From Escherichia virus TH34, in sequence record MT446407.1: DNA of 64,000 nt; one strand, given 5' to 3'. A program made the position numbers and the translations under genes. The notes beneath the pieces were generated by a model. It searched no databases. It was not told where the DNA came from and worked only from the letters and a program-made list of their open reading frames with translations. Below are positions 38 to 63,936 of this stretch, piece by piece. The stretch's first letter is position 1, and each line of letters starts with the position of its first letter.

Positions 38-1795
38 CTACCTTAAGAACGTTTCACTATTTGTTCCAGTGTTCATTGTGGCTGAGTTGCCTAATCCAAG
101 ATTAGTTCTTGCTCCAGCTGCATTAGTTGCACCTGTACCACCACTAGCAACAGGGACGTTATTTAGTGTAGAGATGTTCCCTAATCCAAGATTAGTTCTT
201 GCTCCAGCTGCATTAGTTGCACCTGTACCACCACTAGCAACAGGGACGTTATTTAGTGTAGAGATGTTCCCTAATCCAAGATTAGTTCTTGCTCCAGCTG
301 CATTAGTTGCACCTGTACCACCCTGAGAAACAGAGAGAGCAGTCGTAAGTCCTGTAATAGAGGTTATGTCTGAGTTTGCACCAGAAGAAGCAGCTCCTAG
401 AGTAGTTCTAGAAATAGTAACATTACCTGTAGCTTCATCAGGAGCTTGATTGTTAACAGTAACCACATAAGGTTTCTGAGATTGAACAGACCCGTCATAT
501 TGAGAATCTTTGTCAGCGTCTGGAGCACGAATAGCTTCCCCACCAGTCCAATCTGGAAGTCGGATCCTGATGAAGTTGCTAGAGTCTGCATCAGTAAAAC
601 CATCAGCCAGTTTACCCCAAGAGAAATACTGCTTAGCACCGGACTGCCATTCAGTTTCACTAACTACTGGTAATTGGCCACTGACCAAAGATGGACCTAA
701 ATCTAAAGCACTTTCCTTAGAAACCAAGCGACCATCAGCAGGTAGTACACCGGGGTAAGAGATATTCTTAGCTGGGTCATATGGGAACATAACCATCTCA
801 CCGAGATACAAAGAAGGGTTCCCTGTAGGAATAGTAATATCAATGTTGCCAGATGAGTCAGGAGGTCGTGAGTTAACTGTAATAATACGACCTTCGGTTT
901 TAGCTGGAATTAGTGTTTTATTAGCTGAAACGGTGTAGAAAACATATTGAGTGTTTTCCCAAACCATAACAGATTCGCCTGTTTGACGATATTGAGCATT
1001 TGCATCAGCATCAGCTTTAGTTTGATATATTTTAATAGGTTTATCGAATTTGTCATTAATCTCTTGACGACTATATTGAGCAACGTTCAGAACGTTACCT
1101 AGGCCAACAACGTTCTTATCAAGAGTAAGGGCTACATCTCCAGTTTGTTCTGGACCATCATTAACTTTGATAGAACGAACAGAAGGGATTAAGTTAGCGA
1201 TATTACTGAGGCTGGTTTTATACACTTTGTTGTCATCAGGGTCAACATAAAAACCAATATCCCCTGCTTCTGGAACCCCCGTTGGGGCAGTGTTTAAGTC
1301 GGTTACAGAACCATCACGACCCGGCTCACCTTCAGGAATACCTAGCTTGATTTCACCAGTTTGGTTATTGAAAGAACCAGTAGCTTCAGAACCCGGAGGA
1401 AGAGTGGTCACTGTAACTTTCATAGCCAACAGGATATCAAGTTGCTGATCGACTTCAATCAGTTTTTGGTTAATCAAAGCAATAGAGTTGTTAGCATTAG
1501 CAACAGCTGCGTTAGTCTGTGCAATCAGTTGCATCAGTCGAGCATCTTGATCTTTAAAGTCCTGTTTCAGATCTTCAATATCTTGCTGTAATAGAATACC
1601 TTGCTTATAAAGTTTCTCTACTTCAGCAACAAGATCATCAACTGTACCAAACTTAGACTCAGCTAAAAGTGCCCAATATTTAGAATCAGCAGCATACTCA
1701 GCTGCTTGTTTATAGGCTCCGATAGAGCCTTCTGTTGCACCAAATTGGCCTACATTATTTACTGTAGTAGGTTCTTGGTTGTTATAAACGATCAT
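38..1795 (-). CDS. tail fibre / tail spike-like protein
   Basis: 585-aa ORF; heptad-rich coiled-coil N-terminus; Gly/Thr/Asn-rich C-terminus with 2.6 tandem copies of GGTGATNAAGARTNLGLGNISTLNNVPVAS; sits in structural block. Confidence 0.55.
   Translation of the reverse strand: MIVYNNQEPTTVNNVGQFGATEGSIGAYKQAAEYAADSKYWALLAESKFGTVDDLVAEVEKLYKQGILLQQDIEDLKQDFKDQDARLMQLIAQTNAAVANANNSIALINQKLIEVDQQLDILLAMKVTVTTLPPGSEATGSFNNQTGEIKLGIPEGEPGRDGSVTDLNTAPTGVPEAGDIGFYVDPDDNKVYKTSLSNIANLIPSVRSIKVNDGPEQTGDVALTLDKNVVGLGNVLNVAQYSRQEINDKFDKPIKIYQTKADADANAQYRQTGESVMVWENTQYVFYTVSANKTLIPAKTEGRIITVNSRPPDSSGNIDITIPTGNPSLYLGEMVMFPYDPAKNISYPGVLPADGRLVSKESALDLGPSLVSGQLPVVSETEWQSGAKQYFSWGKLADGFTDADSSNFIRIRLPDWTGGEAIRAPDADKDSQYDGSVQSQKPYVVTVNNQAPDEATGNVTISRTTLGAASSGANSDITSITGLTTALSVSQGGTGATNAAGARTNLGLGNISTLNNVPVASGGTGATNAAGARTNLGLGNISTLNNVPVASGGTGATNAAGARTNLGLGNSATMNTGTNSETFLR
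86..322. repeat. in-frame 90-bp tandem repeat, about 2.6 copies, inside the tail fibre gene
   Basis: near-identical units starting at about 90, 180 and 270 (cctaatccaagattagttcttgctccagctgcattagttgcacctgtaccacc...). Confidence 0.85.
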
Positions 1796-1804
1796 ATGTT
1801 CTCC

Positions 1805-2551
1805 TTATCTGTATCTACGAATGCCGTACACTTCTCGTGAGCTATTAAGACGGCTAATAGTATTAGGGATTACTAGAGGGGAACCTGAGTATTCTGCTTT
1901 CTTACTCTGCTCCACAATCTCGTCAAGGATTGCTTTACCAAGTGCTGACCACTTTTGAACTCCATTATCATCTTGAACGAATAAAGAAGCATGACGCAGA
2001 GTAAAATATAGAAGCAGCTCAGGAGCAATAGTTAGAATAGCACTGGTATCTTCATCAGAGTGGAACTCCGGTGGGTCTGCATAATAACTTAAAACTACAG
2101 CATTCTCAGCAGGGATTTCAGGTGCTCCATCATCAGGATAAACAGGAGTATCTGCATCAATTAGAGGGTAGAACATAAACCGACTACCTAAACGAGCAAA
2201 AACAACTTCCCCTTGATTCCAATTGGATGGGTTGACTGAGTTATTTCTCTTCAACCAGTCAAGTTCTTCAGGAGAGGTTACTCTGAACATCATTCCATTT
2301 GAAGCTCTCATAATCCACTGTGCTTCTAAAAAGTCAGGAGGGATAAAAGCAATACCATCCTTGATATCTAAATATACTTCTTTTTCCAGAGGAGGGATTC
2401 GTAAGTTACGATAGATTTCTTTCTCTGCAAAGTTAATAAAGTTTGGAATCTGATTAACAAATTCATCATCATCCCTATCGGCCCAGAGCGACACAGCCTT
2501 TTTAAGCCAGCCATAGGTATTGATAGGGTAAGCCACTTCAGGCATCGCCAT
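1805..2551 (-). CDS. hypothetical virion protein (position suggests head-tail joining or tail component)
   Basis: 248-aa ORF between tail fibre and capsid genes; no recognisable motif. Confidence 0.4.
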   Translation of the reverse strand: MAMPEVAYPINTYGWLKKAVSLWADRDDDEFVNQIPNFINFAEKEIYRNLRIPPLEKEVYLDIKDGIAFIPPDFLEAQWIMRASNGMMFRVTSPEELDWLKRNNSVNPSNWNQGEVVFARLGSRFMFYPLIDADTPVYPDDGAPEIPAENAVVLSYYADPPEFHSDEDTSAILTIAPELLLYFTLRHASLFVQDDNGVQKWSALGKAILDEIVEQSKKAEYSGSPLVIPNTISRLNSSREVYGIRRYR

Positions 2552-2611
2552 AATTGTGTCCTCCTAGTTGTGTATAGACAAAGAGAATACATTACACTTG
2601 GTCGTGTATAG

Positions 2612-2645
2612 GTCTTAAAGCAAGAAAAGCCGCCCGAAGGCAGCT
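2612..2645 (-). terminator. rho-independent terminator after the capsid/Ig gene (minus strand)
   Basis: minus-strand hairpin gctgcc-ttcg-ggcggc followed by ttttcttgcttt. Confidence 0.5.
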
Positions 2646-2855
2646 TAGGTTTATGCACCAGACTTGACAATATAAGTACGGAATATTGCGGAGGCTGGGT
2701 TAGTTCTGATTGAGATTTTAGTATCTTCACTGGTAATCGGAGCTGATAAAGTGATTGTCAACACCTGACCTGTTAAATCAACTTCCATCAAACCTACATC
2801 AGTGCCTTCTGTGTCATAAGTCAAAGCACCAACTACCGAACCCTGAGGTACACCA

Positions 2856-3515
2856 TCAAAAACGGACTACACCCGGTTGAGTGGAGTCAGTGATTGTGAT
2901 AGAGTCTGTAGCAAGAGGGTTCTCTGGAGCACCTACGACCACAGTGTTAGAAACAGTAGAAGCAACAAGGCCCGTAAGTTTCGGAGTAGCTGTGATTGTA
3001 GTGGTTGCTGTTACAGAAGTTTGAGTTTTATGAGTTGCTTTAACTGTAACTGTACCAGATGTGTTATCACCTAGGGTAAAAACTCCTGATGGGTTAAAAG
3101 ACCCCGCTGATGGAGGAGTTATCAAAAACTCATAATCAGAGAACGTTGAGTTAGTTGCTGTAAACATTGTGGTGAACGCTGTAGTGCTACCACCGATCTT
3201 ACCGGTGATTGGACCTCTTGTTACAATAGTAGCGGGCTCAAAAACAGATTGGACTGTAGCAGTACCTGTCTTACCACCTTTAGTTGCCGTAATAGTTGCT
3301 GGGGTTTCTTGCGACGCACTCGGTGCAGTATATAGCCCAGAAACAGAAACAGCCCCACCGCCTTCAACGGACCAACTAAATCCGGTTGTGCTTGTGGAGC
3401 CGTCGCTCATTTCTGCTGTAGCTGTAAACTGCTGAGTAGCCCCCGTCGGAAGGCTTGCAACCGACGAAGGACTAACAGTTACGGTATCTACTGTTACGCC
3501 GCCACTACCTTTCCC
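2856..3515 (-). CDS. Ig-like (BIG2-type) C-terminal extension of the major capsid protein, probably made by -1 frameshift
   Basis: about 220 aa Thr/Ser/Gly-rich with Ig-like repeats; reading frame is -1 relative to the capsid ORF and overlaps its 3' end; first in-frame ATG lies inside the capsid gene. Confidence 0.5.
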   Translation of the reverse strand, partial: GKGSGGVTVDTVTVSPSSVASLPTGATQQFTATAEMSDGSTSTTGFSWSVEGGGAVSVSGLYTAPSASQETPATITATKGGKTGTATVQSVFEPATIVTRGPITGKIGGSTTAFTTMFTATNSTFSDYEFLITPPSAGSFNPSGVFTLGDNTSGTVTVKATHKTQTSVTATTTITATPKLTGLVASTVSNTVVVGAPENPLATDSITITDSTQPGVVRF

Positions 3516-4555
3516 GCAGCAGTGAACAGAACACCGGAAGCGTATGGGTTGCGGTGACGCAGACCAACTTCCATTTCGATCATCCACTTCTCGTAAGAAC
3601 CGTCTTTAGCCAGTTCAGTACGCTTCGGTGCACGAAGAACCATCTGAGTCCAATCAGAGCTACGGAAGAAGTAAACTGCATCAGTAGGCATCCAACGGTT
3701 AACGATGATTTTATAGCTCTGACCCAGCGGGTCGGTGATGCTATTAACTTCGTAGATGAATTGTTTAGTGTTCTCAAAGATACGCTGACGAGAACCAACA
3801 GAGTTTTCCTGAAGCTTAGCGAAAACGCTAGCGTGAGCAGGGTTAATCATGATGATATCAGCTTCAGAACCTGCGGTATACAGCTGAAGAGTCATATCAA
3901 AGATATCTGCTTCATCAAAGCCTACGTTAGTGGTAGGGTTAGATGCGTTCTGTGCAACTTTAACAGTTACTGCACCGGTATCCGGGTCAGCAGGACCGTT
4001 CTTAGTCTTATCAACAACGCTACCAGACAGACCGCCATGAGCACACAGGAACTGGAAAGCACCAGTCTTACGAGCTGCATGAGTATCATTCAGACCAGCC
4101 AGAGCAGGATCAGCTGCTGAGTTAGTTAGATACTGGTCAGCCAGAACGTCGGTACGAGCCTGACCGGACAGCAAGATTTTCTCGAGGTCACGTTTAATCT
4201 CTTTACCTTTCTTCTCCAGCTGATACATCAGTTCACGACCACGACCGTAGTTAGCGGTGGTGTTAGCAGTATCAGAAACACGAACTACTTTACGCAGGAT
4301 CTGAGTTACGTTAGATTTGATAACAGTCGGTTGCATTTCACCGTCATCAGCGCGAGAGCCTTCAACGTGTGCGTTGTTAGCATCAACACTTGCCAGTGCA
4401 TCGGTCTGCCAGCTGAAAATAGTCTGGTTGATAGACTCTTTACCAGTCATAGACACAAACGGAGTATCTTGCGGAGAGAGGACAGAAATCCAGTTAGCAA
4501 AAGAAAGTTTTTTACCGTTCTGGTCGTAAGATACAAATAAAGTTGGATTTGCCAT
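3494..4555 (-). CDS. major capsid protein
   Basis: 353-aa ORF immediately downstream of the scaffold gene, upstream of the Ig-like extension and a terminator; strong RBS; assignment by position and size. Confidence 0.6.
   Translation of the reverse strand: MANPTLFVSYDQNGKKLSFANWISVLSPQDTPFVSMTGKESINQTIFSWQTDALASVDANNAHVEGSRADDGEMQPTVIKSNVTQILRKVVRVSDTANTTANYGRGRELMYQLEKKGKEIKRDLEKILLSGQARTDVLADQYLTNSAADPALAGLNDTHAARKTGAFQFLCAHGGLSGSVVDKTKNGPADPDTGAVTVKVAQNASNPTTNVGFDEADIFDMTLQLYTAGSEADIIMINPAHASVFAKLQENSVGSRQRIFENTKQFIYEVNSITDPLGQSYKIIVNRWMPTDAVYFFRSSDWTQMVLRAPKRTELAKDGSYEKWMIEMEVGLRHRNPYASGVLFTAAGKVVAA
3509..3515 (-). other. candidate -1 slippery heptamer G_GGA_AAG (minus-strand sense)
   Basis: capsid frame reads gcG GGA AAG gta gtg gcg gcg TAA; -1 frame reads GGG AAA GGT AGT GGC ... 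continuing into the Ig-like ORF. Confidence 0.5.
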
Positions 4556-4595
4556 GTTATGTTAGCTCCTATACTATTTAAAAATAATTTGTCGA

Positions 4596-5675
4596 TTAAT
4601 CTACGAGATACTTAAATGCATCTTCGTGACGAATGCGACCCTCTGAAAATGCCTTGGCAACCTTAGCGTTGTCTGGCGTATTGGAAGTACGAGACTTAGA
4701 AGAGTCGGACTTCACAACCTTACGTGGAGAACCCGGACGTTTAATCTTAGCCATTACCTGTTGCTTACCTTTATCAAATTGGTATGCTTTATGCAAAGCT
4801 AGGAAAATAGACGGACGATTCTCTTTCAAGACTTCTTCTTCTGTAGCACCGAGATCAATTGCATATTGCATCAGATTCTGATAAACACTGTCATCCCAAT
4901 TAGGAATTTCACGTTTCAATACATTAACACATTCGGTACATTTAGCTTGGAAGGCTTGCTGTTCTTTTGCTGCTGCATCTTGCTTGATCTTAACTTGCGC
5001 TTGTTCAAGCTGCTGACGACGAGCAGTGTACTTCTCTAAAAAGCGTTTGTTTTCAACATAGGCTTGTGGATCTTCAACTGCTAGCTTGTCCCAATCAAAA
5101 CCGTTATAATCTTCAATTACTCGGTCTGCTTCTAAGGACGCTAATTCTAATACATCCGCTAAACCACCTACACGCTCTTCAAAAGCTTCAACATGACGCT
5201 GAAGAACAGCTTCCCGTTCAGTCATATCGGAGCCAGTAACATAGCCATTTGATAACTCTTCAATAGTCATCTCACGACCATCAGGAAGGGTGATAACAGT
5301 TTCATAATCTACGTCGAAAGCATCACCTTCTTCGTATTCACTGTCAGTAGAATCATCGTGATCTACATCACTTGGTTCTTCATCTTCAACAACTTCATCA
5401 GAGTCGTCGTCTGAATCACCTTCATCGTCTTCTCCTTCCTCTTCTGAATCATCCCATCCTTCTTCATCTTCGAACGTGAGTTCATCACCCTTACCAAGAA
5501 GGTCGGAATCAAAGTCAAAGTTATCTCCAGTATCTTCTGGAAACTCACTGTCAATGTCCACTTCTGGTTCTTGTTCAGATTCTAATCGACTTAGGTCTTC
5601 TTTAAAAGATCCTTTCAAGTCATCAAGTTGGAGGAATGATTTAAAATCGTTTGGGTCTAAAAATTCATTTGCCAT
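4596..5675 (-). CDS. scaffolding protein
   Basis: 359 aa; highly acidic D/E-rich central part and helical C-terminus; located between portal and capsid genes. Confidence 0.55.
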   Translation of the reverse strand: MANEFLDPNDFKSFLQLDDLKGSFKEDLSRLESEQEPEVDIDSEFPEDTGDNFDFDSDLLGKGDELTFEDEEGWDDSEEEGEDDEGDSDDDSDEVVEDEEPSDVDHDDSTDSEYEEGDAFDVDYETVITLPDGREMTIEELSNGYVTGSDMTEREAVLQRHVEAFEERVGGLADVLELASLEADRVIEDYNGFDWDKLAVEDPQAYVENKRFLEKYTARRQQLEQAQVKIKQDAAAKEQQAFQAKCTECVNVLKREIPNWDDSVYQNLMQYAIDLGATEEEVLKENRPSIFLALHKAYQFDKGKQQVMAKIKRPGSPRKVVKSDSSKSRTSNTPDNAKVAKAFSEGRIRHEDAFKYLVD

Positions 5676-5911
5676 TAGGAATTATCTCCTGCACTATTGA
5701 TAGCAGCTTTTATGACCTCTTTTAAGCTACCAACCATTTTATACTTTTGATAACACTCTTCGCGTTTCTTTGACTCATGCACATCAGTTAAAACTATGTC
5801 TTTCATGAGGGTTTCTTTTAATGCCTCTAATGCTGCGTCAAGAATGCCGTTATGATTGAGAGCCGCCAAAGCGGCGGCATGCTCTTTATTGAATTGTTGT
5901 CTAGTATTCAT
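5675..5911 (-). CDS. hypothetical small protein
   Basis: 78-aa ORF between portal and scaffold genes. Confidence 0.35.
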   Translation of the reverse strand: MNTRQQFNKEHAAALAALNHNGILDAALEALKETLMKDIVLTDVHESKKREECYQKYKMVGSLKEVIKAAINSAGDNS

Positions 5912-5920
5912 TTAGTGTCC

Positions 5921-8164
5921 TTATTTTCTACTACCAAGCTTTCTATTAGGAATCCTAGAATCTTTGAGAGAACTCTGTTGTTCTTTCTTAGTTTCATTTG
6001 CTTCTTTCTTTTGGAGTTCCAAAGTCTTATCTTGAATTTTAGCTTGCTGGTCTACCTTCTCAAGATCAACCTGATGATTCATGGTCATCTGGAGTTCTTT
6101 CAGTATAGATTCATATTGACGAACCTGTTGCTGAAGGAGAGAAAGCTTATGCTTAGCTTGTTCAAGAGTAGCTGAGTTATCTTCCTTACGATTTTCGAGA
6201 GTCATCTGATCAGCAGCATTCTCTTGCTTGAATTGCAATTCTTCTTGACGCAAGCTGAACTCGTCCGCAGCTTTCTGCTGTTCAAACGTAGTACGTTCAC
6301 GCTGGTCGAATGCATCAGCAATCATCTTCTGAGAAGAAGCCTGTACGTTCTCAACCTGAGCTTTAGTCATCTCGAGCTGGAGGATTTCCATCGGAGAAGG
6401 CTGAGGAGGTTGATACTGTTCAAGAGGCATAAGATATTTATGAGTGTCTTTAATACCCATCAACTCAAAGATCTGTGCAGTCATATAACGATCTTGCTCC
6501 AGAGTAAAGAGAGGTGCAAGCTGAGCATCAGCAGCAATCAATTGCTTCAGGCTAATCAGTTTCTGTGCACGTTCTGATTTCTCAGTAGGAGAGATAGCTA
6601 CAACAACTTGTAAATTATGACGAGCTGGTAATTGTTTAGGATTTACTTCAACCATACCACGAGGGGTTTGAACCTGTAAAGGAACTTCACCATTTTCTCT
6701 GATAAGGTTGTAAATACCACGCATTAATTCAACCATACCATTATGAGCAATGTTACGACAAACCATACGGAGACGGTTCTGTGCAGCATTCATCATTAGA
6801 CCTACGGTTGCATATGCGTTATCATTCTTAAATACATCAGGGTTAATACCCATACCAAGTTTAGTAACACCTGTACGAGTTTCTTTCAACTCTTCAGACA
6901 TTCCTAACAGACCATCAATACCTTGAGGTAGATTGTGGTAAGGGAAGAGATCAATCGCATCCTGACGCTCCATTTCAACTACACCACCCGGACGGTTGTC
7001 TAGTAAAGAACGACGGTCATAGGCTCCTACAATGGCTTTATATCGACCATAGTTTGCGTTGTTAACGTTATCAATGTAACCACGGACAAGTGCTGTACGT
7101 AGGTCTTGAATATCTTTAGTAATGTCATACACGGATTGACCATAGAAGGAACCCGGAATAGGATAAGGACAGAAAGTAACAAACGGAATGCTAGTTACTT
7201 CTTCACAAGAGAGAATATGCTCACCTGCTTGGATTACTTGATAGAGTTTAGATTCTTTGTTATTATCCAATACACCTGTACGGATGTAATGTTCATAAAC
7301 CCAAACCATGCAAGCCACATCTTCAGTGTCCACACCAATGTCTGCATCAATGTCCTGTCTCCAGTCAGTACGTGACCAAGCAACTGTAGACTGAGTGGTG
7401 TCCATTGTATCAGTCCAGTCGTTAAACGCTTCGATCTCGTCTTTAGGGAAGCCCATTGCTAATAAATCATCTTTAGATTTACGTGTGCGATGACAGAAAT
7501 ACTGAGCATCTGCAAAAGAGGTAGCATGTTCGTCAACAAAGATTTGCTCTGAAGGAACATATTCTACTTTAACACGTTTTACTGTTTGTTTGTAAGTTAC
7601 TTTAACATCCACTGTTCCATCATCGTTTTCAGTGGTAAAGATTTCTAAATCTTGAAGTCCACCTGCTTCCATACCTTGTACGTATGCAGCCAAAGCTTCT
7701 GGAGGTACGCCCTCAGCCTCTTCTGTTTGGGTAGAGGTTTGTTCATCCCAATAGTATTTGATAAAAGAGTTACGTGTAACCAGACATTCCTGAGCCGCTG
7801 AGGAAATGATGTTATATCCCGGATTATCACGAAGCAAGATTTGGTTTACAAGCTTAGTTGCTACATCAGCTGCATCCGAATCTGCTTGGTTGTCCGCAAC
7901 AAACGTCACCGCTTCATCGCCTGAACAGAATACGTTAATGATATCTTGGAGAGTTCCGTTAACAGACTCCCATACTGTACGATCTACCCAACTAGAGCTT
8001 CCAGCAGTTACTGGAGCTGGTAAGTTTCCGTAGAAATATTCCCATGCTTCACGAGAATAACCTTTTACAGCGATGTCTACATAACCCTGTGCATAATTGA
8101 ATCGACGTTGAAGGTCAACGCGTAATTCATCCAAAATATCTTCACTAAATTTCTTCTTAGCCAT
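5921..8164 (-). CDS. portal protein with long C-terminal helical (barrel-like) extension
   Basis: 747 aa; directly downstream of large terminase; C-terminal about 150 aa Q/E/K-rich coiled coil as in P22-type portals. Confidence 0.65.
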   Translation of the reverse strand: MAKKKFSEDILDELRVDLQRRFNYAQGYVDIAVKGYSREAWEYFYGNLPAPVTAGSSSWVDRTVWESVNGTLQDIINVFCSGDEAVTFVADNQADSDAADVATKLVNQILLRDNPGYNIISSAAQECLVTRNSFIKYYWDEQTSTQTEEAEGVPPEALAAYVQGMEAGGLQDLEIFTTENDDGTVDVKVTYKQTVKRVKVEYVPSEQIFVDEHATSFADAQYFCHRTRKSKDDLLAMGFPKDEIEAFNDWTDTMDTTQSTVAWSRTDWRQDIDADIGVDTEDVACMVWVYEHYIRTGVLDNNKESKLYQVIQAGEHILSCEEVTSIPFVTFCPYPIPGSFYGQSVYDITKDIQDLRTALVRGYIDNVNNANYGRYKAIVGAYDRRSLLDNRPGGVVEMERQDAIDLFPYHNLPQGIDGLLGMSEELKETRTGVTKLGMGINPDVFKNDNAYATVGLMMNAAQNRLRMVCRNIAHNGMVELMRGIYNLIRENGEVPLQVQTPRGMVEVNPKQLPARHNLQVVVAISPTEKSERAQKLISLKQLIAADAQLAPLFTLEQDRYMTAQIFELMGIKDTHKYLMPLEQYQPPQPSPMEILQLEMTKAQVENVQASSQKMIADAFDQRERTTFEQQKAADEFSLRQEELQFKQENAADQMTLENRKEDNSATLEQAKHKLSLLQQQVRQYESILKELQMTMNHQVDLEKVDQQAKIQDKTLELQKKEANETKKEQQSSLKDSRIPNRKLGSRK

Positions 8165-8231
8165 CTAATCTCTCCCTCGGTTGATAGCTTGGAGTAAACT
8201 ACTAAAGGGAGGACTAGCCTCCCCACTATAT

Positions 8232-9773
8232 TTAGTAGCTTTGATTCCATCTGTTAATATTTTCTTGATAAAGCGACGAGCTACCATAGCTAGCGTCATG
8301 CTTAGACCGACCTCTGTGTGTAACAGAACAAGCTGAATATCGCATTGCGTCCATAAGGTCATCGTGTTCTTTAATAATCTTCCCAACTTTTCGATGGTAA
8401 CGTGCTTTCTCTTCAAAGAGCTTAGCACATGCGGTAGTATTAAAGACTTTGAATCGACCTGACATCATACGCTCACGAATATCAGTAATTCCTGGCTCCA
8501 CAAAGAAGTTCTTCTTACTATCCATTCCGATCTTGTTGTGGAAGGTATCATTTTGTACGTTTACTCCTGCATTTTTATAGAATTGTGCTACAGAAGCACC
8601 ACTTCCCTTCTCAATGTTATCAGCATCGTGAGGAAGAATGACTGGAATCCACTGACCACGACCATTAATAGCTGGTGCATGATACACTGGAGTAAAGCCA
8701 CTTTCTTTATAGCAGTCATAAATGTAGATTGTATCGGTGTTAGCATCATAAGCTGACCATACAGCTGCCGTCGGGTGATCAATACCAATATCAATGGCAC
8801 AAACACGTTTCCACGTATCAGGAATTTCAAACGGGTCACACTTAATTGAATCATCAGATACATCGTAAATCAAACCTGAACCCAACAGAGGCATACCTTT
8901 AGAGCGCATCTCTAGCTGCCATGCCGGAATACCTTCTGTCATATCCTTTATATCTTGGTCAGAGATGTGACCACCTAGGTCCACATGAGCATCCCACCAA
9001 GAAGCATTTTGGAAATACAGAGAACCTGTGTTCTCGTCCCCTTCACCTTTCATAAACTTGTCCACCAGCTCTGTTAATCCGTTCTCTGGTGTAGCTGTAA
9101 TCGTAACTAAACCTTTAGTAGTAAGTGTACGTGTTACGCACTGAGAGAAGATTGCCATACTTTCATAAGGATCTTCTTCGTCCAGCCAAATGTAATCCAC
9201 TGTAGCACCCATTAATGTGTGTTCACCCTGTTGGGTAGAACGAAACTCTAACGTACTCAGCCCATCAAATTCGCCTCTAGCATTTTGGTGCTTGATTTGT
9301 ACGATCTGTAATTTGTTTCCATCTCGTTCTATCGTGTCAATGACGATAGCGTCACGAGGAATAACACCCGTCCCTAATAAGTTTGTATCCTTTCCGATAG
9401 GTGTTCCAAATAATTCCTTTTGCAATACCTTTCTTGTAGAGTCCCCTGTAATCCCTACTGCCCAAGCCAATATGGGTCGATTAAATCTATATCCTGTCCA
9501 CCAAGTTGGGTAGCGACCTGTGACATGACAAGCAAACTCGTATGCCTCGCTGTAAGATTTACCAACACGGTTAGCTGCACACAGGAATCTAAAGCGATGC
9601 TTCAGTCCCGCTGCATAAAAGTCTTTCTGAAACTGGTATGCTTTAAAAGAAAGAATCCTATTATACTTTCTCCATTGATCTCTATCCTTCAGCATTTCAA
9701 GCAGAGCCTTCTTCTCCTCTACCGATAGCTTGTCTCCAGTTAGTGCTTCATATATTTCTTTATCTAATGACAT
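8232..9773 (-). CDS. terL: terminase large subunit
   Basis: 513 aa; Walker-A-like LCAANRVGKS near N-terminus; acidic residues consistent with a C-terminal nuclease domain; position upstream of portal. Confidence 0.8.
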   Translation of the reverse strand: MSLDKEIYEALTGDKLSVEEKKALLEMLKDRDQWRKYNRILSFKAYQFQKDFYAAGLKHRFRFLCAANRVGKSYSEAYEFACHVTGRYPTWWTGYRFNRPILAWAVGITGDSTRKVLQKELFGTPIGKDTNLLGTGVIPRDAIVIDTIERDGNKLQIVQIKHQNARGEFDGLSTLEFRSTQQGEHTLMGATVDYIWLDEEDPYESMAIFSQCVTRTLTTKGLVTITATPENGLTELVDKFMKGEGDENTGSLYFQNASWWDAHVDLGGHISDQDIKDMTEGIPAWQLEMRSKGMPLLGSGLIYDVSDDSIKCDPFEIPDTWKRVCAIDIGIDHPTAAVWSAYDANTDTIYIYDCYKESGFTPVYHAPAINGRGQWIPVILPHDADNIEKGSGASVAQFYKNAGVNVQNDTFHNKIGMDSKKNFFVEPGITDIRERMMSGRFKVFNTTACAKLFEEKARYHRKVGKIIKEHDDLMDAMRYSACSVTHRGRSKHDASYGSSSLYQENINRWNQSY

Positions 9774-9861
9774 GTTTCCTCCAATTAAAATAGAAAAGGG
9801 AGAGATCCCTCGCGAAAAGAACCCTCCCCTCTATTTACAGAATATGCTATCCTGTCTTCCT

Positions 9862-10338
9862 TTATTTGCTCTCGTCCGCTCCCTCCCCCTTTTCAGCGTC
9901 CTCAGAGTTGTCTTCTTCTGGAGGTAGCACATCTGCACCTAATGCTCCAGTCAAGAAGTCCTTGATTTGTGCGTTCAATGAATCTTCATTAATTACATTC
10001 TCTTCCTCAATCTTAATCTCAACAGAAGCTGCCTTCGGATATACCAGATCTGCAACTTTACTTGCAGCCTTGAATCTAAGATCAGGTGGAATATTTGGAT
10101 CTTCATAAATTTGAATCAACACTTCATCAGGGGACAGATGACTTGAAGCAACTCGGTCCAACATGAGCTGTGTCAACTTACCTCTACTACCTTTGGGTCG
10201 TCCGAACTTATTTCCCTTTTGGAACTTCCCTGTGCTTGGCTCCATACCACGGTTTTCCAATTCATCAGTTACACCGGGTAATCTTCCTGTAACCTCAGCT
10301 ACCTGTGCAGGCGTGAGTTCTCCTTTTTCTCCAAACAT
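9862..10338 (-). CDS. putative terminase small subunit
   Basis: 158 aa immediately upstream of terL; basic GRPKGSRG DNA-binding-like motif; acidic C-terminus. Confidence 0.4.
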   Translation of the reverse strand: MFGEKGELTPAQVAEVTGRLPGVTDELENRGMEPSTGKFQKGNKFGRPKGSRGKLTQLMLDRVASSHLSPDEVLIQIYEDPNIPPDLRFKAASKVADLVYPKAASVEIKIEEENVINEDSLNAQIKDFLTGALGADVLPPEEDNSEDAEKGEGADESK

Positions 10339-10403
10339 CTTATACTCCTTCTACATTATCGTTATAACAAAAAGCCTCCCACTAGAGGAGGCAACACCTT
10401 TTA

Positions 10404-11063
10404 TTAATCTACATTACCTACGTGTAGGTTGAACAAAGTCTGGAGAGCTACAGTTTCACCTTCCCAAGTCACTGGAACAGATTTGTCATTCTCTACATCA
10501 AAAGAAGAGGACGCCAAAAATTTTTTGTATTCTTCAAGCTCGGGGTCCAGAGCTTGTTCACTAGCATGTACCCACGTAACTACTTCATTACCTTCTTCAT
10601 CAATTACTACATTACGTGACCATTGATCTTTTGAATTTAAATAATTATTCAGAGCTTCATACTCGGCTTCTTCAATCATCTCAATCATTTCACGGGCATA
10701 GTCCGGTAGGTGTGCATGTTTGTCAGCTACATACGGAACAACTTCTAAATTGGATGGACACTTGCGTTTAACTTCTTTTGCTACAGTGAAATAATCTTTC
10801 ACATCTTTAGCTTCTGTACGAGGAATCAAACCTTCCCATAGTTCACGGGTTGAAGGAGCATGACCATACACAGAACCATGAGCCAGTTGTTTTACCATCT
10901 CAACTCGGGATTTACCTCCAGTAGTTTCATGAACACGATTCAGATAGAGAGTGTCCTCTGATAAAGGACGGAGATTACCATTGTAAACAACCTCGCCTTT
11001 ACATCCCATGTTCTCGTAGATTGCATTCAGTGTAGTAGTTCCTGTCATATTGTTATTCATCAT
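10404..11063 (-). CDS. hypothetical protein
   Basis: 219-aa ORF with good coding character; no confident motif. Confidence 0.45.
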   Translation of the reverse strand: MMNNNMTGTTTLNAIYENMGCKGEVVYNGNLRPLSEDTLYLNRVHETTGGKSRVEMVKQLAHGSVYGHAPSTRELWEGLIPRTEAKDVKDYFTVAKEVKRKCPSNLEVVPYVADKHAHLPDYAREMIEMIEEAEYEALNNYLNSKDQWSRNVVIDEEGNEVVTWVHASEQALDPELEEYKKFLASSSFDVENDKSVPVTWEGETVALQTLFNLHVGNVD

Positions 11064-11346
11064 TCTCTCCTTCAGTATTTACGTTATCACTATAACGATA
11101 ATCTTTAAACGTTTCAGCCTTGTAACTCACAAAGCATCTCATGTACAACCAGCCCAATGAACTAATGTCCATCGTAGCATCAAAATCTTCATCATCGTCT
11201 AGGTCTACTAATCTACCCAAACAACTCAATACCTCCTCCCCTTCATCAAATACAAATGCACATCTTTCAGTGCGGAAGTAAGGAAGCAGCTCTGATAAAA
11301 AGTCTAGAATCATTTTATATCTCCTCTGATATAAGAGAGTGATCAA
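11053..11346 (-). CDS. hypothetical acidic protein
   Basis: 97-aa ORF with a run of acidic residues (DLDDDEDFD). Confidence 0.35.
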   Translation of the reverse strand: MITLLYQRRYKMILDFLSELLPYFRTERCAFVFDEGEEVLSCLGRLVDLDDDEDFDATMDISSLGWLYMRCFVSYKAETFKDYRYSDNVNTEGENDE

Positions 11347-12450
11347 CCCATAAAGGCTTACTCATCTAAAGGCCCACCCATCTAATCTCTGAAGTAAAGG
11401 GGACTCCATAAAGGCTACCCCACATTAAGGCATACCCATAAAGGCCATGTCATGTTAAGGCCTATCCACCCATTTACTATTCCTCACCTTACCACAGTCT
11501 GCACATCTCCATGTACTCTTGTAATAAGCGTGTAATCGTTCATCACCTCTTGATATCCGGATTGGATAGTATTCGTGATTACATTTGAATTGCTTAACTA
11601 GTAACTTAATCTTCCACATAAAGTTGTTCCTCATACTTAAATCCACAACTAACGTTGGGGCATATAGTTATATATAAGAGTTTAAAATTCTGATTTGACC
11701 GAGTGGGGCTAGCCCCTCCGAGAGTGTTTTGGTAAAAAGGGGAGTCCTCATTTAAAAAAGGGTTATTACCGATGCAATCGCCTTTAGGAAATCAATCAGC
11801 CTTTAAGCTCTAAGCCTTGCCCTACCTGCTATCAGTGGCATGCCTACCCATAAATACCCTACCCATTGATATTAGACATGCATTATTTACCCATGTATAT
11901 CTAACCAGTGATTTCCTACCCGTATTTCTCTTACTCATGTTGAGAAGGGATGAAAGGCTAGACTCTGATGTACTGTACAGGCATACTAATAGAAGACTAT
12001 AACTAACCGGTATTAATAGTAACATAAGCATTAGTAACCTATATAAACTATATCGTTGATGACAATCCCCCAAGTGCTGACCAACTGCTTTGCAGGTTGG
12101 CCACGGTTTAATAGTAATAACTTATGTTAATGTTTCATGAGTGGATTATTGATGTATGTATCATTAGACTGGTATTAGTTTCTTTTATCATTCTTTTAGG
12201 TCTGTTTCTTTTTCAGCGTGTCTTTATTCTTTTTCTTTTAGTTGTTTGAGTAAATTATTTGACTGGTAATTAACTCCCGCATGGTCTGGTCTGTCATCTG
12301 TAACTAACTTACATTATACCCTACCCGTTTCCCCTTCCTCGTTAGGCTTCTTACCCATTGGCTAACCTATGCGGCACGTTCTACCCATCTGTCGTTGCCG
12401 TTGGTCTGCTACCCGTTCTATAAGTGTTATTAAGTAGTAAGCTGTATCTC
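11345..12450. repeat. repeat-rich divergent intergenic region (candidate genome terminus, pac site or regulatory hub)
   Basis: multiple short direct repeats: ccataaaggc x3 (11347-11450), (C)TACCC(A/G)T about 10 copies (11820-11960 and 12290-12420); AT/T-rich stretch 12100-12260; separates leftward late genes from rightward early genes. Confidence 0.35.
11455..11646 (-). CDS. small Cys/His zinc-finger-like protein
   Basis: 63 aa; C-x-H ... C-x2-C pattern shared with three small + strand ORFs at 22806-23383. Confidence 0.4.
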   Translation of the reverse strand: MDLSMRNNFMWKIKLLVKQFKCNHEYYPIRISRGDERLHAYYKSTWRCADCGKVRNSKWVDRP

Positions 12451-12522
12451 TGAATAAGAAAGTTTAGTAAATTAAATTCCTTTTAGATTCAGTGAGTTAT
12501 GAAATAGTTTGAAAATAAGTGG

Positions 12523-12550
12523 TTGACAAGTTTTTCCTTTAATATATAGT
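12523..12550 (+). promoter_or_regulatory. sigma70-type early promoter
   Basis: TTGACA (12523-12528), 16-nt spacer, TATAGT (12545-12550); upstream of the first early gene. Confidence 0.5.
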
Positions 12551-12595
12551 TGCGACTGTAATTTGTAGTTCACATCAACCGAAAGGATTAATGAA

Positions 12596-13459
12596 ATGTC
12601 AAAGTTAGCAATTAAATACTTGAATCAAGCAAATGATGTACTTTCTCCGTTAGGTCTTTCCGTTGGTGTGCCTTCTCAATGGATGGATAACCAGCAAGCT
12701 CGTACCAGCTTTAAAAACTCTGTCATTCTGGCTTGTCTTATCATAGATTCCGCTGCGAACGCCTTACAGTGTGAAGATGAGCAGTCAATGAAAGAGAATG
12801 GTTTTACAGATATGCAAGATGCTATCAACTGTTACATTCAGGCTAATTTAGATAGTTGGACTCAGAATGATTGGCCTGAATCTTGCCGCGATGTTAACGC
12901 AGTATTATCCCGCTTGTCTGCTATGGTTGAAGCTATTCAGAACAAGAAGAAGAAAGATAGTAAGCCTTCTATTGCAAGTAAGATTATGAAGTCTGTCAAC
13001 CTTGCAAGTTATGCGCTGGTTGCAGCTATCAGTGTTAGTGCTATCGCTACCAATGTGCAGGCAAAAGACTCTCTTTCTACAGGTCTGCAATCCTTTGTTA
13101 GCACGTTTAAGAATGCTCCTGATATGGCTTGCCGTGACGTTGGCAGTGATGGTAATGATTCATTTTGGAAGGTGCATTTTAACTCTGTAACCGTAAAAGA
13201 TGTGCGTGTCACTCTTACCCCGTTAAGTGAGAAATCAGGCATTCAGTCGGTTATTAATTTAAAGCGTGCTGATAGTGATCATGACATGGTTACATACTCT
13301 CTATATCAGAAGGTTGAGAAAGAGAAATTACAGTTCGTGACTAATCTCGTTAGCTATGGTGATGTTAGTGAAACTGTACTCGCTACCACTGCTTACAATG
13401 ACGGTGTAGCAGTTTATACAACCTTTATTAACTTTGCTAATTGTGAGGCTATCCAGTGA
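12596..13459 (+). CDS. early hypothetical protein
   Basis: 287-aa ORF with RBS aaaggatta upstream; first gene after the early promoter. Confidence 0.55.
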   Translation: MSKLAIKYLNQANDVLSPLGLSVGVPSQWMDNQQARTSFKNSVILACLIIDSAANALQCEDEQSMKENGFTDMQDAINCYIQANLDSWTQNDWPESCRDVNAVLSRLSAMVEAIQNKKKKDSKPSIASKIMKSVNLASYALVAAISVSAIATNVQAKDSLSTGLQSFVSTFKNAPDMACRDVGSDGNDSFWKVHFNSVTVKDVRVTLTPLSEKSGIQSVINLKRADSDHDMVTYSLYQKVEKEKLQFVTNLVSYGDVSETVLATTAYNDGVAVYTTFINFANCEAIQ

Positions 13460-13704
13460 ACGAATCATTTGCAACCGTAATAAACTCCCATATGTGCATC
13501 CAGCATGGTGATTTGGTTATCAGCGGTAAATATGGGCTTGTACTGATTCCTATCCGTGCTTTGGCTTCCTTGTCTTCAGCACATGCACGCATGACTATTG
13601 CCCGGTTGTCCGGCCTTGATCCGATGGATGCTAACGAATATCGTGATTTGCTGGTTAAATCCGGTCTATCACTGGAAGAACTGTTAACCGTCGAGGATCG
13701 TTAA
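13456..13704 (+). CDS. hypothetical small protein
   Basis: 82-aa ORF; start overlaps the upstream stop (translational coupling). Confidence 0.4.
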   Translation: MNESFATVINSHMCIQHGDLVISGKYGLVLIPIRALASLSSAHARMTIARLSGLDPMDANEYRDLLVKSGLSLEELLTVEDR

Positions 13705-13816
13705 TGGTGATTCATAAATACTTTTTGCATTGCCTGATTGCTTTCTGTATCATGTTATTTACCTATGACATGATTTCTTATGTTGCACGTTCTTTTTAAG
13801 GATTGCCCCAATCGTA

Positions 13817-14158
13817 TTGGAGGATTGGATTATGAAAATTAAATTAGCTGTATGTGCTGCCTTGTTCGCTGTTTCTTCCGTGTCTTATGCTGCCGTATTC
13901 AATGAGGCTAATCTCGATGGCCTGCAATGTACCTACCTTATGGAAAATTACGACACTGGCAAGAAGTCCAGCAAGGTAGTATTGATTGACCTGAATGACT
14001 ACGACAACAAGGTTGTTGATAGCAAATATGCGATGCTTGTTAACGAAGCTACAGGCAAACAAATTACTATTGATCACATGATGCGGTCTAGTATGACGTT
14101 GTTCGATGAGTCGATGAACGAAATATCATCCGGTAACGGCACTTGCACCAATCCGTAA
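13817..14158 (+). CDS. small secreted/periplasmic protein
   Basis: 113 aa; N-terminal signal peptide MKIKLAVCAALFAVSSVSYAAV; RBS ggagg upstream. Confidence 0.5.
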   Translation: MEDWIMKIKLAVCAALFAVSSVSYAAVFNEANLDGLQCTYLMENYDTGKKSSKVVLIDLNDYDNKVVDSKYAMLVNEATGKQITIDHMMRSSMTLFDESMNEISSGNGTCTNP

Positions 14159-39513: not shown

Positions 39514-40950
39514 ATGATTAAGATTCCATTGTCTGAATTAAACCTTCAAGAAGGAGAAGCCCTCAGTGTAGGGCTTGACCTGATTCGTAATTTGATCAGA
39601 GATAACGTAGTCCCTGATGGTATCTATCCTGTTATTGCGGGTGGTGCTATCCGTGATACGTTCTTCCAAAATCGAACTCCGAATGACGTTGATATCTTCC
39701 TAGTTCAAGGAGGATTTCGTTGGAACACTCGTCAGGAAAACAGCCCTGCTAACGTGGGTAATGCTGCACTGTTCCTTGACAACTTCTTGTCTTGGACAGA
39801 GAGTAAAGGGCTTCAAACTACATCTCGCCTAGTTCAGCCTGTTAGTGGGACAAATTACGCTGAAGCACTTTTCACTTTCCAAGAGATTTTGGAAGTGGAG
39901 ATTGACGAAGTGAAGATTCAGATGATGATTAACCTCCCTCTGGATATGGATACTCTGAGAGGTCGCTTCCCTATGATTTGTCAAGGGTTTATGACTCTCG
40001 ATGATATGTATGTGTCGAACGAAGGTATGTTTGCAATGGCATATACTAATGATATCCCTGTGGTGACAAGTCGTGACATGAAGTATGTCCACAAAAAGTG
40101 GCCTGAAGCAACAGTTGCAGTTTACAGCAGTTCTACTGAGTATATGCACCTTGCAATGGGAGCTTTTGGTGAACCAGAAGTTCATCTGATCAGTGATTTA
40201 GTTGGGCCTATGGCTGGTGTAAACTTGTATCAGAATCAACGTCGCCACTACACCTTGAAGATGATGGAAACTGTATTAAATATTCCTCAGGAAGCGGGTC
40301 GTAACTATCTGGATGAAGAGGTTAACCTACAGACAGATTGGTCTAGTGAATTAACCACTATTGGTGTTGAAGCAATTACGCAGCCTTGGACTCCGGGAAC
40401 TGACAGACGTGACTCTTGGCAACAGACAAGATTCGCAGCACCTGCTACAGAGGCACCTCGTGATACTTTCACTGGTAGTTTTGGTAGTGCCCGTTCTTCT
40501 GGAATGGGTACTCGTACATGGCACGTCACTCATGATACAGGTGGAGTAACTGTTCGACCTGCTTCTTCTCCATCTATGGGTGATTTGCAGCGTTCCCGTC
40601 GTTCATGGGAAACAGTTAGCTCTGTTGTTCAGGGTCTACGTTCTAGTGATATAGAACGTGTAGAAGTTGGTGATTTGCCAACCCCTACAGAAGATCGGGT
40701 AGCAGCTATAGCGGCTCGTGAAGCTGCTCGTACTGGCTTTGCATCTTTAGCTAACGACGCTCGACCTGTTGGTCGTCGTAATGGTCTGGCTCATTCTAAC
40801 ACTGCACTTGGTGCAGAACTCCGAGCAACAGCTCGTGAATTAGTTGGTGAACTTGATAGTAACTTAGCAGGTGTTACGCTGACTCGTGAAACAGCTCGTA
40901 ACATGATTAACAATTTGACATCATCTGTACAAGGAAACAGAAACTCATGA
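39514..40950 (+). CDS. Pol-beta superfamily nucleotidyltransferase (CCA-adding / poly(A)-polymerase-like head) with low-complexity C-terminal half
   Basis: 478 aa; GGAIRD...DVD signature near N-terminus; C-terminal about 200 aa rich in S/T/R/A. Confidence 0.5.
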   Translation: MIKIPLSELNLQEGEALSVGLDLIRNLIRDNVVPDGIYPVIAGGAIRDTFFQNRTPNDVDIFLVQGGFRWNTRQENSPANVGNAALFLDNFLSWTESKGLQTTSRLVQPVSGTNYAEALFTFQEILEVEIDEVKIQMMINLPLDMDTLRGRFPMICQGFMTLDDMYVSNEGMFAMAYTNDIPVVTSRDMKYVHKKWPEATVAVYSSSTEYMHLAMGAFGEPEVHLISDLVGPMAGVNLYQNQRRHYTLKMMETVLNIPQEAGRNYLDEEVNLQTDWSSELTTIGVEAITQPWTPGTDRRDSWQQTRFAAPATEAPRDTFTGSFGSARSSGMGTRTWHVTHDTGGVTVRPASSPSMGDLQRSRRSWETVSSVVQGLRSSDIERVEVGDLPTPTEDRVAAIAAREAARTGFASLANDARPVGRRNGLAHSNTALGAELRATARELVGELDSNLAGVTLTRETARNMINNLTSSVQGNRNS

Positions 40951-63217: not shown

Positions 63218-63282
63218 AATTTCTCCTTATAAATAAAAATGTCCTACCTCCTATATACATTATAAGAGATAGGACTTAGGTC

Positions 63283-63936
63283 TTACTGAGTCATCCAATC
63301 AGTGTTAGAAGACAAAGCACCATTAAGTTTAGGATTGGTTGCTGAACCACCAACAGCTGCTTCAGACTCTGCTTCGAATACACCGAGAGGGTCATAGAAA
63401 CCAGCAGAAGGAATAGCTCGGTTAACAAGAGCAGTTGCACGTTTCTTGTCCATACCAGAACCAACATAAGCTTCAATAGTTGCTTTCTTAGAATCCTTAA
63501 CACCTTTCTCAGCAGAAGAAGCACCAACAGTTGCTTGCTTACGGGCATAGGAAAGAGCGGCATCGGATGGACGATAACCAGCTTTAAGAGACCAAGTGTT
63601 ACCTACCTTAACAAGAATGGATGGGTCTTCTGCGAAGTGTGACAAGTCATCAGCTTGCAGAGAACGGTTAGCGCCAATCTCAGCTCTTGCGGAGTTCATA
63701 ATAGCCTGCATGTAAGCAGAACGAGCAGTCTGATAATCACCATCCTTAACTGCTTTGTCTGCCAAATCCAAGTCTTTATGAGACTGGTTAAACAGTCCTG
63801 CCTTCTCTGCCCACTGTTTAGCAACCGTACCTTCAGCAGTGTTCTGAGCAAGACGAACTTCTTTCGGGTTAAAGTTAAAACTTTGAGCAGCTTGTTCTGC
63901 ACGGTCTGCCTTAACTTGATCACGATAACCAATCAA
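63283..63936 (-). CDS. virion-associated protein (may extend beyond the window)
   Basis: 217-aa ORF upstream of the large virion protein; minus-strand coding appears to continue to the window edge. Confidence 0.4.
   Translation of the reverse strand: MIGYRDQVKADRAEQAAQSFNFNPKEVRLAQNTAEGTVAKQWAEKAGLFNQSHKDLDLADKAVKDGDYQTARSAYMQAIMNSARAEIGANRSLQADDLSHFAEDPSILVKVGNTWSLKAGYRPSDAALSYARKQATVGASSAEKGVKDSKKATIEAYVGSGMDKKRATALVNRAIPSAGFYDPLGVFEAESEAAVGGSATNPKLNGALSSNTDWMTQ

Follow-up and report, generated by a model that had tools for sequence, protein, structure and literature searches.

Escherichia virus TH34 carries a predicted 249-bp direct terminal repeat with terminus-linked heptamer arrays

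The genomes of phiEco32-like phages are described as ending in short, exact direct terminal repeats (DTRs). The phiEco32 repeat of 193 bp was mapped experimentally (cited through PMC9965538 and PMC4281155), and repeats of 193 bp were also reported for YF01 from full-length nanopore reads (PMC9965538), for Paul by PhageTerm (PMC6787329), and for SU10, in which reads drop off sharply at both repeat ends (PMC4281155). These fixed ends with exact repeats, together with the blunt drop-off in SU10, contradict both headful pac packaging and cos ends in the relatives (PMC4281155, PMC9965538, PMC6787329). Within the SU10 DTR, an internal repeat of the form CCCTTTTTTA-10 nt-CCCTTTTTTA sits 21 nt from the repeat end (PMC4281155), and a highly conserved region at ~130-170 has been described (PMC9965538). 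Phages of this type have no RNA polymerase of their own, an enzyme that in T7 contributes to concatemer processing, and the authors of the SU10 study pointed out that genome generation and packaging may for this reason differ from those of T7, by a mechanism still unknown (PMC4281155). For the SU7-like clade, the literature offers only a doubtful 53-bp repeat, and a 249-bp class is known solely from database records such as NC-B. Here, we analyze the 64,000-nucleotide sequence of Escherichia virus TH34 (MT446407.1, hereafter the window), focusing on a region dense in short repeats, between its late and early genes, that is predicted to contain the DTR.

By its sequence matches, the window is a phiEco32-like podophage (Gordonclarkvirinae) nearest the SU7/NC-B/TH42/Bas88 group. 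The best DNA matches to the region, at 86-93%, are to the Kuravirus/Suseptimavirus phages TH42, TH43, Bas88, Bas87 and MLP3, and the window is oriented opposite to the phiEco32 record. Morphogenesis genes occupy the minus strand at 38-11646 and again at 58799-63936, with plus-strand genes from 12596 to 57389 between them, bearing out the suggestion of an earlier note, made from the sequence alone, that the late block wraps around the window ends. Because minus-strand blocks sit at both ends of the window, the assembly is a permuted, collapsed form of a linear genome. It was probably opened at an arbitrary point, so that the join of the two physical genome ends falls inside the window. The terminase genes of the group are found near the DTR; here, these are the open reading frame (ORF) 8232-9773(-), the counterpart of the terminase large subunit annotated in PAS59, BS3, MN03 and phiEco32, and an ORF at 9862-10338(-) that resembles a small terminase subunit (TerS).

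Several features of the region place the predicted DTR at 11711-11959: homology to mapped repeats, conserved boundaries, a core of the SU10 type, a step in conservation, and the single copy of that core. Exact terminal repeats could be checked in the records of phiEco32 (193 bp), NC-B (250 bp) and PAS59 (275 bp). The 250-bp repeat of NC-B maps to window 11711-11959, and the 193-bp repeat of phiEco32 aligns at both its boundaries to the 11711 and 11959 points. The position is syntenic, lying between the homologue of phi32_1 on the late side and that of phi32_128 on the early side. From database records, we assembled 18 related junctions in which to compare boundaries and geometry. All 18 contain the low boundary ...TTTGACCGRRTGGNNCT/AGSC (/ denotes the boundary) and the high boundary GAAAGGCY/AK. 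From boundary to boundary, the repeat measures 192-194 bp in junctions of the phiEco32 clade and 249-250 bp in those of the window's clade, and it reaches 280 bp in TH42. Conservation within the window's clade is 0.87-1.0 across the repeat and falls from 0.97 to 0.63 exactly at 11959/11960. The repeat core has a single copy in the window, as expected of a collapsed assembly. Finally, several relatives' database records begin or end inside the region, and those of SU7, UKE3 and HC-25922 begin at the position equivalent to 11959. These observations support the proposal of the earlier note that genome ends or terminal repeats may lie here.

The predicted DTR closely resembles those of its described relatives. 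The repeats of phiEco32, SU10, Paul and YF01 (192-193 bp) occupy the same syntenic place and share homologous boundary sequences on both sides. They also have in common the invariant core, in which TAAAAA(A)GGG flanks GAGTCCTCATTTAAAAAA, and a CCCRT array of four copies whose end is 36 bp short of the high boundary. This core in the window (11733-11762) matches the internal repeat of SU10. In contrast to phiEco32, however, the predicted repeat is 249 bp rather than 193 bp, with the extra 56 bp being internal, and its heptamers read TACCCAT rather than TCCCCGT.

Outside the low boundary, a non-coding flank is nearly invariant in the junctions of all clades and constitutes the most conserved non-coding sequence of the whole phage group; most Kuravirus records share only window 11668-11775 with the region. 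This flank could be where the low-side cut is recognized, could contain a leftward promoter of the adjoining small gene, or both. We also considered a palindromic or inverted GGCT/AG nuclease site at both boundaries, but only the low CT/AG and the high GAAAGGC are invariant, and we do not press this idea. Apart from phiEco32 itself, a scan of viral contigs with the invariant 19-mer recovered a single new junction, L030, which is of the phiEco32 class (192 bp) and has the same geometry; the two other matches fell by chance in unrelated coding sequence, and no further heptamer class emerged. In the 2.8-kb junction of Salmonella phage 7-11, a distant comparator now placed in another family, there is no comparable array, and its record has no terminal overlap.

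The repeats in and around the predicted DTR fall into three arrays, all in one orientation (Table 1). TACCCRT matches the window 26 times on both strands, compared with 8.9 +/- 3.2 in shuffled sequence. Nine of these matches lie within 11433-12416, all on the plus strand: one at 11433, four at 11845, 11860, 11888 and 11917, and four at 12322, 12352, 12382 and 12410. The six-letter ACCCAT occurs nine times against 0.38 expected in a k-mer test against the rest of the window, with 0 copies on the other strand. For the core CCCRT, the region holds 12 plus-strand and 0 minus-strand copies against 1.32 expected per strand (P about 2e-8). The earlier note had counted about ten copies of (C)TACCC(A/G)T in two clusters; their presence above chance stands, with the refinement that only the first cluster is inside the DTR. 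Its three copies of CCATAAAGGC were found as exact matches at 11348, 11406 and 11436, with no other exact copy in the 64 kb.

Array 1, inside the DTR, has a rigid geometry with respect to the high boundary. Its CCCRT cores are spaced by 15, 28 and 29 bp, with a degenerate unit 14 bp after the last full copy. That last copy ends 36 bp before the high boundary, and both this distance and the 29-bp last spacing are found in 18 of 18 junctions, across DTR lengths of 192-280 bp. Four copies are present in every junction except that of TH42, which has five. The 56-bp difference in DTR length between clades and the extra unit of TH42 both lie beyond the array's other side or within the array. In TH42, this is a 31-bp TACCCAT unit aligned at about window 11890, giving the predicted 280-bp repeat; DTR length in the clade thus appears to change by gain of array units. 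Conservation is 0.99 at the heptamer positions of array 1 and 0.91 in its spacers.

Arrays 2 and 3 flank the repeat. Array 2 occupies the stretch 360-460 bp past the high boundary. The sequence block that contains it (about 12300-12420) is nearly invariant, and the end of this block lies 107 bp short of the early promoter. Array 3 fills the 141-bp gap between the leftward ORFs 11053-11313(-) and 11455-11646(-), and holds the three CCATAAAGGC copies, TAAAGGC at 11351, 11367, 11409 and 11439, and TTAAGGC at 11425 and 11455. The window's clade has this array, and the phiEco32 clade for the most part lacks it.

The heptamer sequence differs between clades in a concerted manner. In the window's clade, both array 1 and array 2 consist of YTACCCAT/CTACCCGT. 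The phiEco32 clade (TCCCCGT) has TTCCCCGT/CTCCCCGT and a final YTACCCGT in both arrays, and Bas92 (TCCCGTG) has TTCCCGTG in both. The spacers between heptamers are nearly unrelated across clades. Because the flavors change in concert while the spacers diverge, selection appears to act on the heptamers themselves. In Bas92, array 2 is reduced to one or two copies.

Table 1. Features at and around the predicted terminal repeat (window coordinates)
Feature	Position	Strand	Remarks
Array 3, late-gene side; ~15-bp units of ACCCAT/ACTCAT + (T)AAAGGC	11346..11475	+	CCCRT at 11347, 11377, 11435, 11469
Small gene, phi32_1 homologue, 59-63 amino acids	11455..11646	-	PHROG 7696, E 6.8e-12; probable ATG at 11634
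Conserved non-coding flank outside low boundary, TTATATATAAGAGTTTAAAATTCTGATTTGACCGAGTGGGGCT/	11668..11710		Nearly invariant in junctions of all clades
Predicted DTR, 249 bp, one copy in collapsed assembly	11711..11959		Homology to NC-B and phiEco32 repeats
Invariant repeat core, TAAAAAGGG - GAGTCCTCATT - TAAAAAAGGG	11733..11762		Conservation 1.00 at 11740-11759
Array 1, inside DTR: CTACCCAT, CTACCCAT, TTACCCAT, CTACCCGT, degenerate CTTACTCAT	11845..11939	+	
Variable spacer outside repeat	11960..12119		Conservation 0.5-0.65
Conserved non-coding element, CATGAGTGGATTATTGATGTATGTAT..TTAGACTGG	12136..12172	+	Conservation 1.00 at 12140-12159
T-rich tract	about 12176..12245	+	GC 0.28; AT skew -0.54 to -0.58
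Array 2, outside DTR: CTACCCGT, TTACCCAT, CTACCCAT, CTACCCGT	12322..12416	+	Spacings 30, 30, 28 bp
Sigma-70 early promoter, TTGACA-16-TATAGT	12523..12550	+	11/12 matches
First early gene, phi32_128 homologue, 287 amino acids	12596..13459	+	

This layout resembles that of T7, whose 160-bp repeat contains three copies of CCTAAAG and has further CCTAAAG arrays on its flanks (175-340 and about 39630-39705), all oriented alike. These flanking arrays were reportedly named SRL and SRR by Dunn and Studier in 1983. The CCTAAAG spacings are multiples of 12-13 bp, the host promoters A1-A3 are situated 498-750 bp inside the entering end, and the origins phiOL (405) and phiOR (39229) are annotated beside the arrays. 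Both systems thus have a short exact DTR, one motif that recurs inside the repeat and in both flanking arrays in a single orientation, spacings that are multiples of a 12-15 bp unit, and host-type early promoters 500-850 bp from the entering end. There is, however, no sequence homology between them. The heptamers here share a CCCRT core rather than CCTAAAG, with only array 3 (CCATAAAGGC) resembling the T7 variants, and the one 11-mer common to T7 and the window, TACCCATAAAG, is within chance (by our estimate, about 0.5 expected). The T7 arrays abut the repeat, whereas those of the window stand 240-460 bp away, and the terminases are not close relatives.

Repeated boxes also mark small-terminase sites in other phages, such as the R sites of lambda cosB and pacL/pacR of SPP1. 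As in those systems, several short boxes of the same orientation lie here at regular spacing beside a defined nuclease cut site. In contrast to the window, however, lambda and SPP1 produce cohesive ends or headful permuted genomes rather than exact blunt direct repeats. A further difference is that the TerS-like protein of the window does not co-vary with box flavor.

We consider it probable that the region is best explained by a collapsed DTR at 11711-11959 whose terminus-linked arrays serve concatemer processing or packaging. Under this model, replicating concatemers would carry one repeat per unit, and packaging would cut at ...GGGGCT/AGCC (11710/11711) and ...GAAAGGCT/AG (11959/11960). The repeat would then be duplicated, leaving a copy at both ends of the virion DNA, as proposed for T7-like phages. 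In the orientation of the window, the genome unit would start at 11711, the early end with its promoter 812 bp in, and would end at 11959 after the late genes; by analogy with T7, the 11711 end would probably enter the cell first. The short repeats would be cis-elements tied to the terminus, with array 1 at a fixed distance from the high-side cut and arrays 2 and 3 flanking it in the same orientation. In the mechanism that we favor, the arrays would offer a binding platform to the machinery of concatemer processing and packaging: a small terminase or accessory protein may bind them, so that the nuclease would act 36 bp past the last heptamer. The packaging or regulatory role raised in the earlier note is likewise inferred.

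Several lines of evidence weigh against this model, some concerning the ends and others the reader of the arrays. The exact ends of the TH34 genome are predicted from homology, and the boundary dinucleotides vary among relatives (GGCC/AG in MN03 and Bas90, GGCT/AT in EC.W2-6). Moreover, the records of the clade disagree on the low boundary, implying a repeat of 250 bp in NC-B, 53 bp in SU7 and 275 bp in PAS59. The exact 53-bp terminal repeat of SU7 (MZ342906), called by PhageTerm, is equivalent to 11907-11959, and the exact 275-bp repeat_region at both ends of PAS59 (OQ921332), for which the accompanying paper gives no method, is equivalent to about 11893-12200. The true ends of this clade could accordingly be at either of these intervals rather than at phiEco32-homologous positions, a reading that we regard as distinctly unlikely. 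The SU7 authors themselves voiced caution over the 53 bp, and SU7 and NC-B concur on the high boundary. The PAS59 boundaries cut a heptamer and the T-rich tract without any conserved motif, while all junctions examined, including those of SU7 and PAS59 (EK010 and E20-1 were not among them), hold the conserved 249-250 bp interval with both boundary motifs; in PAS59, this interval is 249 bp. The records of EK010 (LC553734) and E20-1 (OP293233) start or end at other, mutually different positions inside the region, which we read as arbitrary opening points or assembly overlaps. A displaced low end would also leave the strong conservation of the low-boundary flank to be accounted for. As for the reader, the assignment of ORF 9862-10338(-) as a putative TerS draws on synteny, a weak DUF5681 match and a published HHpred similarity to the TerS of PaP3; comparing its sequence with solved structures returned nothing meaningful. 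It is 90-96% identical to relatives of all clades, without co-variation with heptamer flavor, suggesting either that TerS reads only the shared CCCRT core or that another protein reads the arrays. To our knowledge, the function of the analogous T7 arrays has also not been established.

What the arrays do can be explained in other ways. One tentative and rather doubtful extension of the packaging model is that the heptamers are cis-signals setting the boundaries in DTR phages that lack a phage RNA polymerase: a protein bound to array 1 would gauge the cut 36 bp past its last heptamer, the flanking arrays would mark the junction for polar processing, and the reader would be a fast-diverging terminus-proximal protein, rather than TerS, that co-evolves with heptamer flavor. 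The terminus-proximal genes (gp5-like, gp4-like, zinc-ribbon-like gp1 and gp128-like), where they can be matched between clades, share only 42-63% identity, but with only three clades compared, co-variation between heptamers and genes is confounded with phylogeny. The same co-variation, with these genes and not with TerS, would suit operator-like sites for a clade-specific early DNA-binding protein that regulates the 12523 promoter and/or the leftward genes, or that protects or organizes the injected ends; array 2 precedes the only strong early promoter by 107-200 bp, and an array borne on the repeat would stand at both DNA ends. We think this unlikely, given that the co-variation is fully confounded with phylogeny, that arrays 1 and 3 have no adjoining strong promoter, that no DNA-binding domain was recognized in the candidate proteins, and that the fixed 36-bp distance to the cut would go unexplained. 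That distance, and the presence of array 1 inside the DTR, are likewise unexplained by a further reading, in which the arrays together with the T-rich tract constitute an origin of replication or a priming zone, a counterpart of T7's secondary origins phiOL and phiOR, with iteron-like or primase-related heptamers and the tract serving for unwinding. In favor of an origin, the tract lies 75 bp from four evenly spaced heptamers and beside a conserved element, phiOL and phiOR are annotated beside the T7 arrays, the motif's complete restriction to one strand would be in keeping with a strand-specific process, and GGTCTG, which contains what we take to be the T7 primase site TGGTC, is enriched on the plus strand nearby. 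The cores of 5-8 bp are nonetheless far shorter than typical iterons (about 17-22 bp), no initiator gene or initiator-like domain was found in the neighboring ORFs, and GC skew is confounded by divergent transcription, making an origin improbable in our estimation. Finally, the repeats might have no function and have arisen simply because replication slipped, or sequence was locally duplicated, where genes are sparse, as the unit gained in TH42, the tandem T-rich duplication in Bas92 and the freely varying spacers would allow. This we consider highly improbable: the heptamers are retained while spacers diverge almost completely between clades; 18 junctions agree in heptamer number and order as well as in the 29-bp spacing and the 36-bp distance; their strand bias is absolute (12 versus 0); and their flavor shifts in concert across separate arrays.

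Between the repeat and the first early gene, additional elements are embedded in variable sequence. At 12073-12104, a 32-bp insertion, AGTGCTGACCAACTGCTTTGCAGGTTGGCCAC, is found only in this genome and is absent from eight close relatives. It contains a short hairpin that folds no better than shuffled sequence (z 0.66), and it occurs only once in the window. Immediately before the T-rich tract, amid the variable spacer, the element at 12136-12172 is fully conserved in the clade and recognizable in the phiEco32 clade and Bas92. It matches the gp36 promoter core AATGTA at only 5/6 positions, and in Bas92 it matches TAATGTATATA at 10/11. This element might be a phage-sigma promoter or an origin element. 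The late-promoter consensus TAATGTATATA, searched with up to 2 mismatches, gave 30 matches against 23 expected, and its match at 12150 is not significant alone; published gp36-dependent promoters sit upstream of other genes.

The T-rich stretch described in the earlier note is present, with T exceeding A on the plus strand, and its length varies among relatives. Bas92 carries a tandem duplication of a T-rich unit, TTCTTTTATTCTTTTCTTTTTCAGCGTTTC, at 340-420 bp past the low boundary. The hexamer GGTCTG has four plus-strand copies in and downstream of the tract (12199-12204, 12283-12293, 12403-12408) against 0.34 expected, with at least the 12283 and 12403 copies conserved in relatives. The primase specificity presumed above is that of T7 and may not be that of the phiEco32 group. 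The sigma-70 early promoter is the only strong site of its kind in 11000-13000 and is A/T-rich upstream; it lies 812 bp from the low boundary. By our estimate from the alignment, the SU7 record annotates a promoter in the corresponding upstream region, and one promoter has been described upstream of the last early-end gene (PMC4281155). An Rfam scan of 11000-13000, at E up to 1, had no match, suggesting that no known RNA element is present in this interval.

Although the earlier note called it intergenic, the region is in part coding. The small ORF 11455-11646(-) is a real gene, given its PHROG match and its annotation in Bas88, PAS59 and Bas86/87. Its product is 83-97% identical within the clade and 49-63% identical to that of the phiEco32 clade. 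The pattern C-x-H...C-x2-C (KCNHE...RCADCGK) suggests that the protein encoded at 11455-11634 is zinc-ribbon-like. This protein diverges between clades along with heptamer flavor. By contrast, the ORFs at 11817-12002(+) and 11822-12073(-) are most likely spurious, as the earlier note had proposed. Neither these two nor the ORF at 12124-12249(+) has a PHROG match, and the three span the predicted repeat boundary and sequence with non-triplet indels among relatives, such as the 31-bp insertion in TH42; because the surrounding sequence carries such indels, all three are probably spurious.

On the late side, the 219-amino-acid protein encoded at 10404-11063(-) is called an ABC transporter in PHROG 12176 and several records, and comparison with Pfam at E up to 0.1 gave no match. 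Its name appears to have been carried over from other annotations, with no domain found here to support it. A mosaic boundary is apparent within 9862-14158: the TerS-like gene is 90-96% identical to those of all clades, whereas those between 10404 and about 14158, which flank the DTR on either side, reach only 42-67% identity to their phiEco32-clade counterparts or are absent there. Because these genes diverge while the TerS-like gene is conserved, the genome ends appear to sit in a fast-diverging module.

A terminal repeat was to be expected here, having been described before in phiEco32-like phages, and it is no new kind of element. What is added is modest, namely the 249-bp class of repeat in the SU7-like clade, the 36/29-bp geometry, heptamer flavors that change in concert, and a layout like that of T7. 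They indicate the point at which the genome should be opened and that about 249 bp should be added for the true virion length, and they flag the records of the SU7-like clade for inconsistent termini (53, 250 and 275 bp). Furthermore, the 36-bp/29-bp geometry and the concerted change of flavor provide concrete, cheaply testable cis-elements for the question of how these phages package their genomes without an RNA polymerase of their own. If true, a role of the heptamers as boundary signals would also suggest a function for the unexplained flanking arrays of T7.

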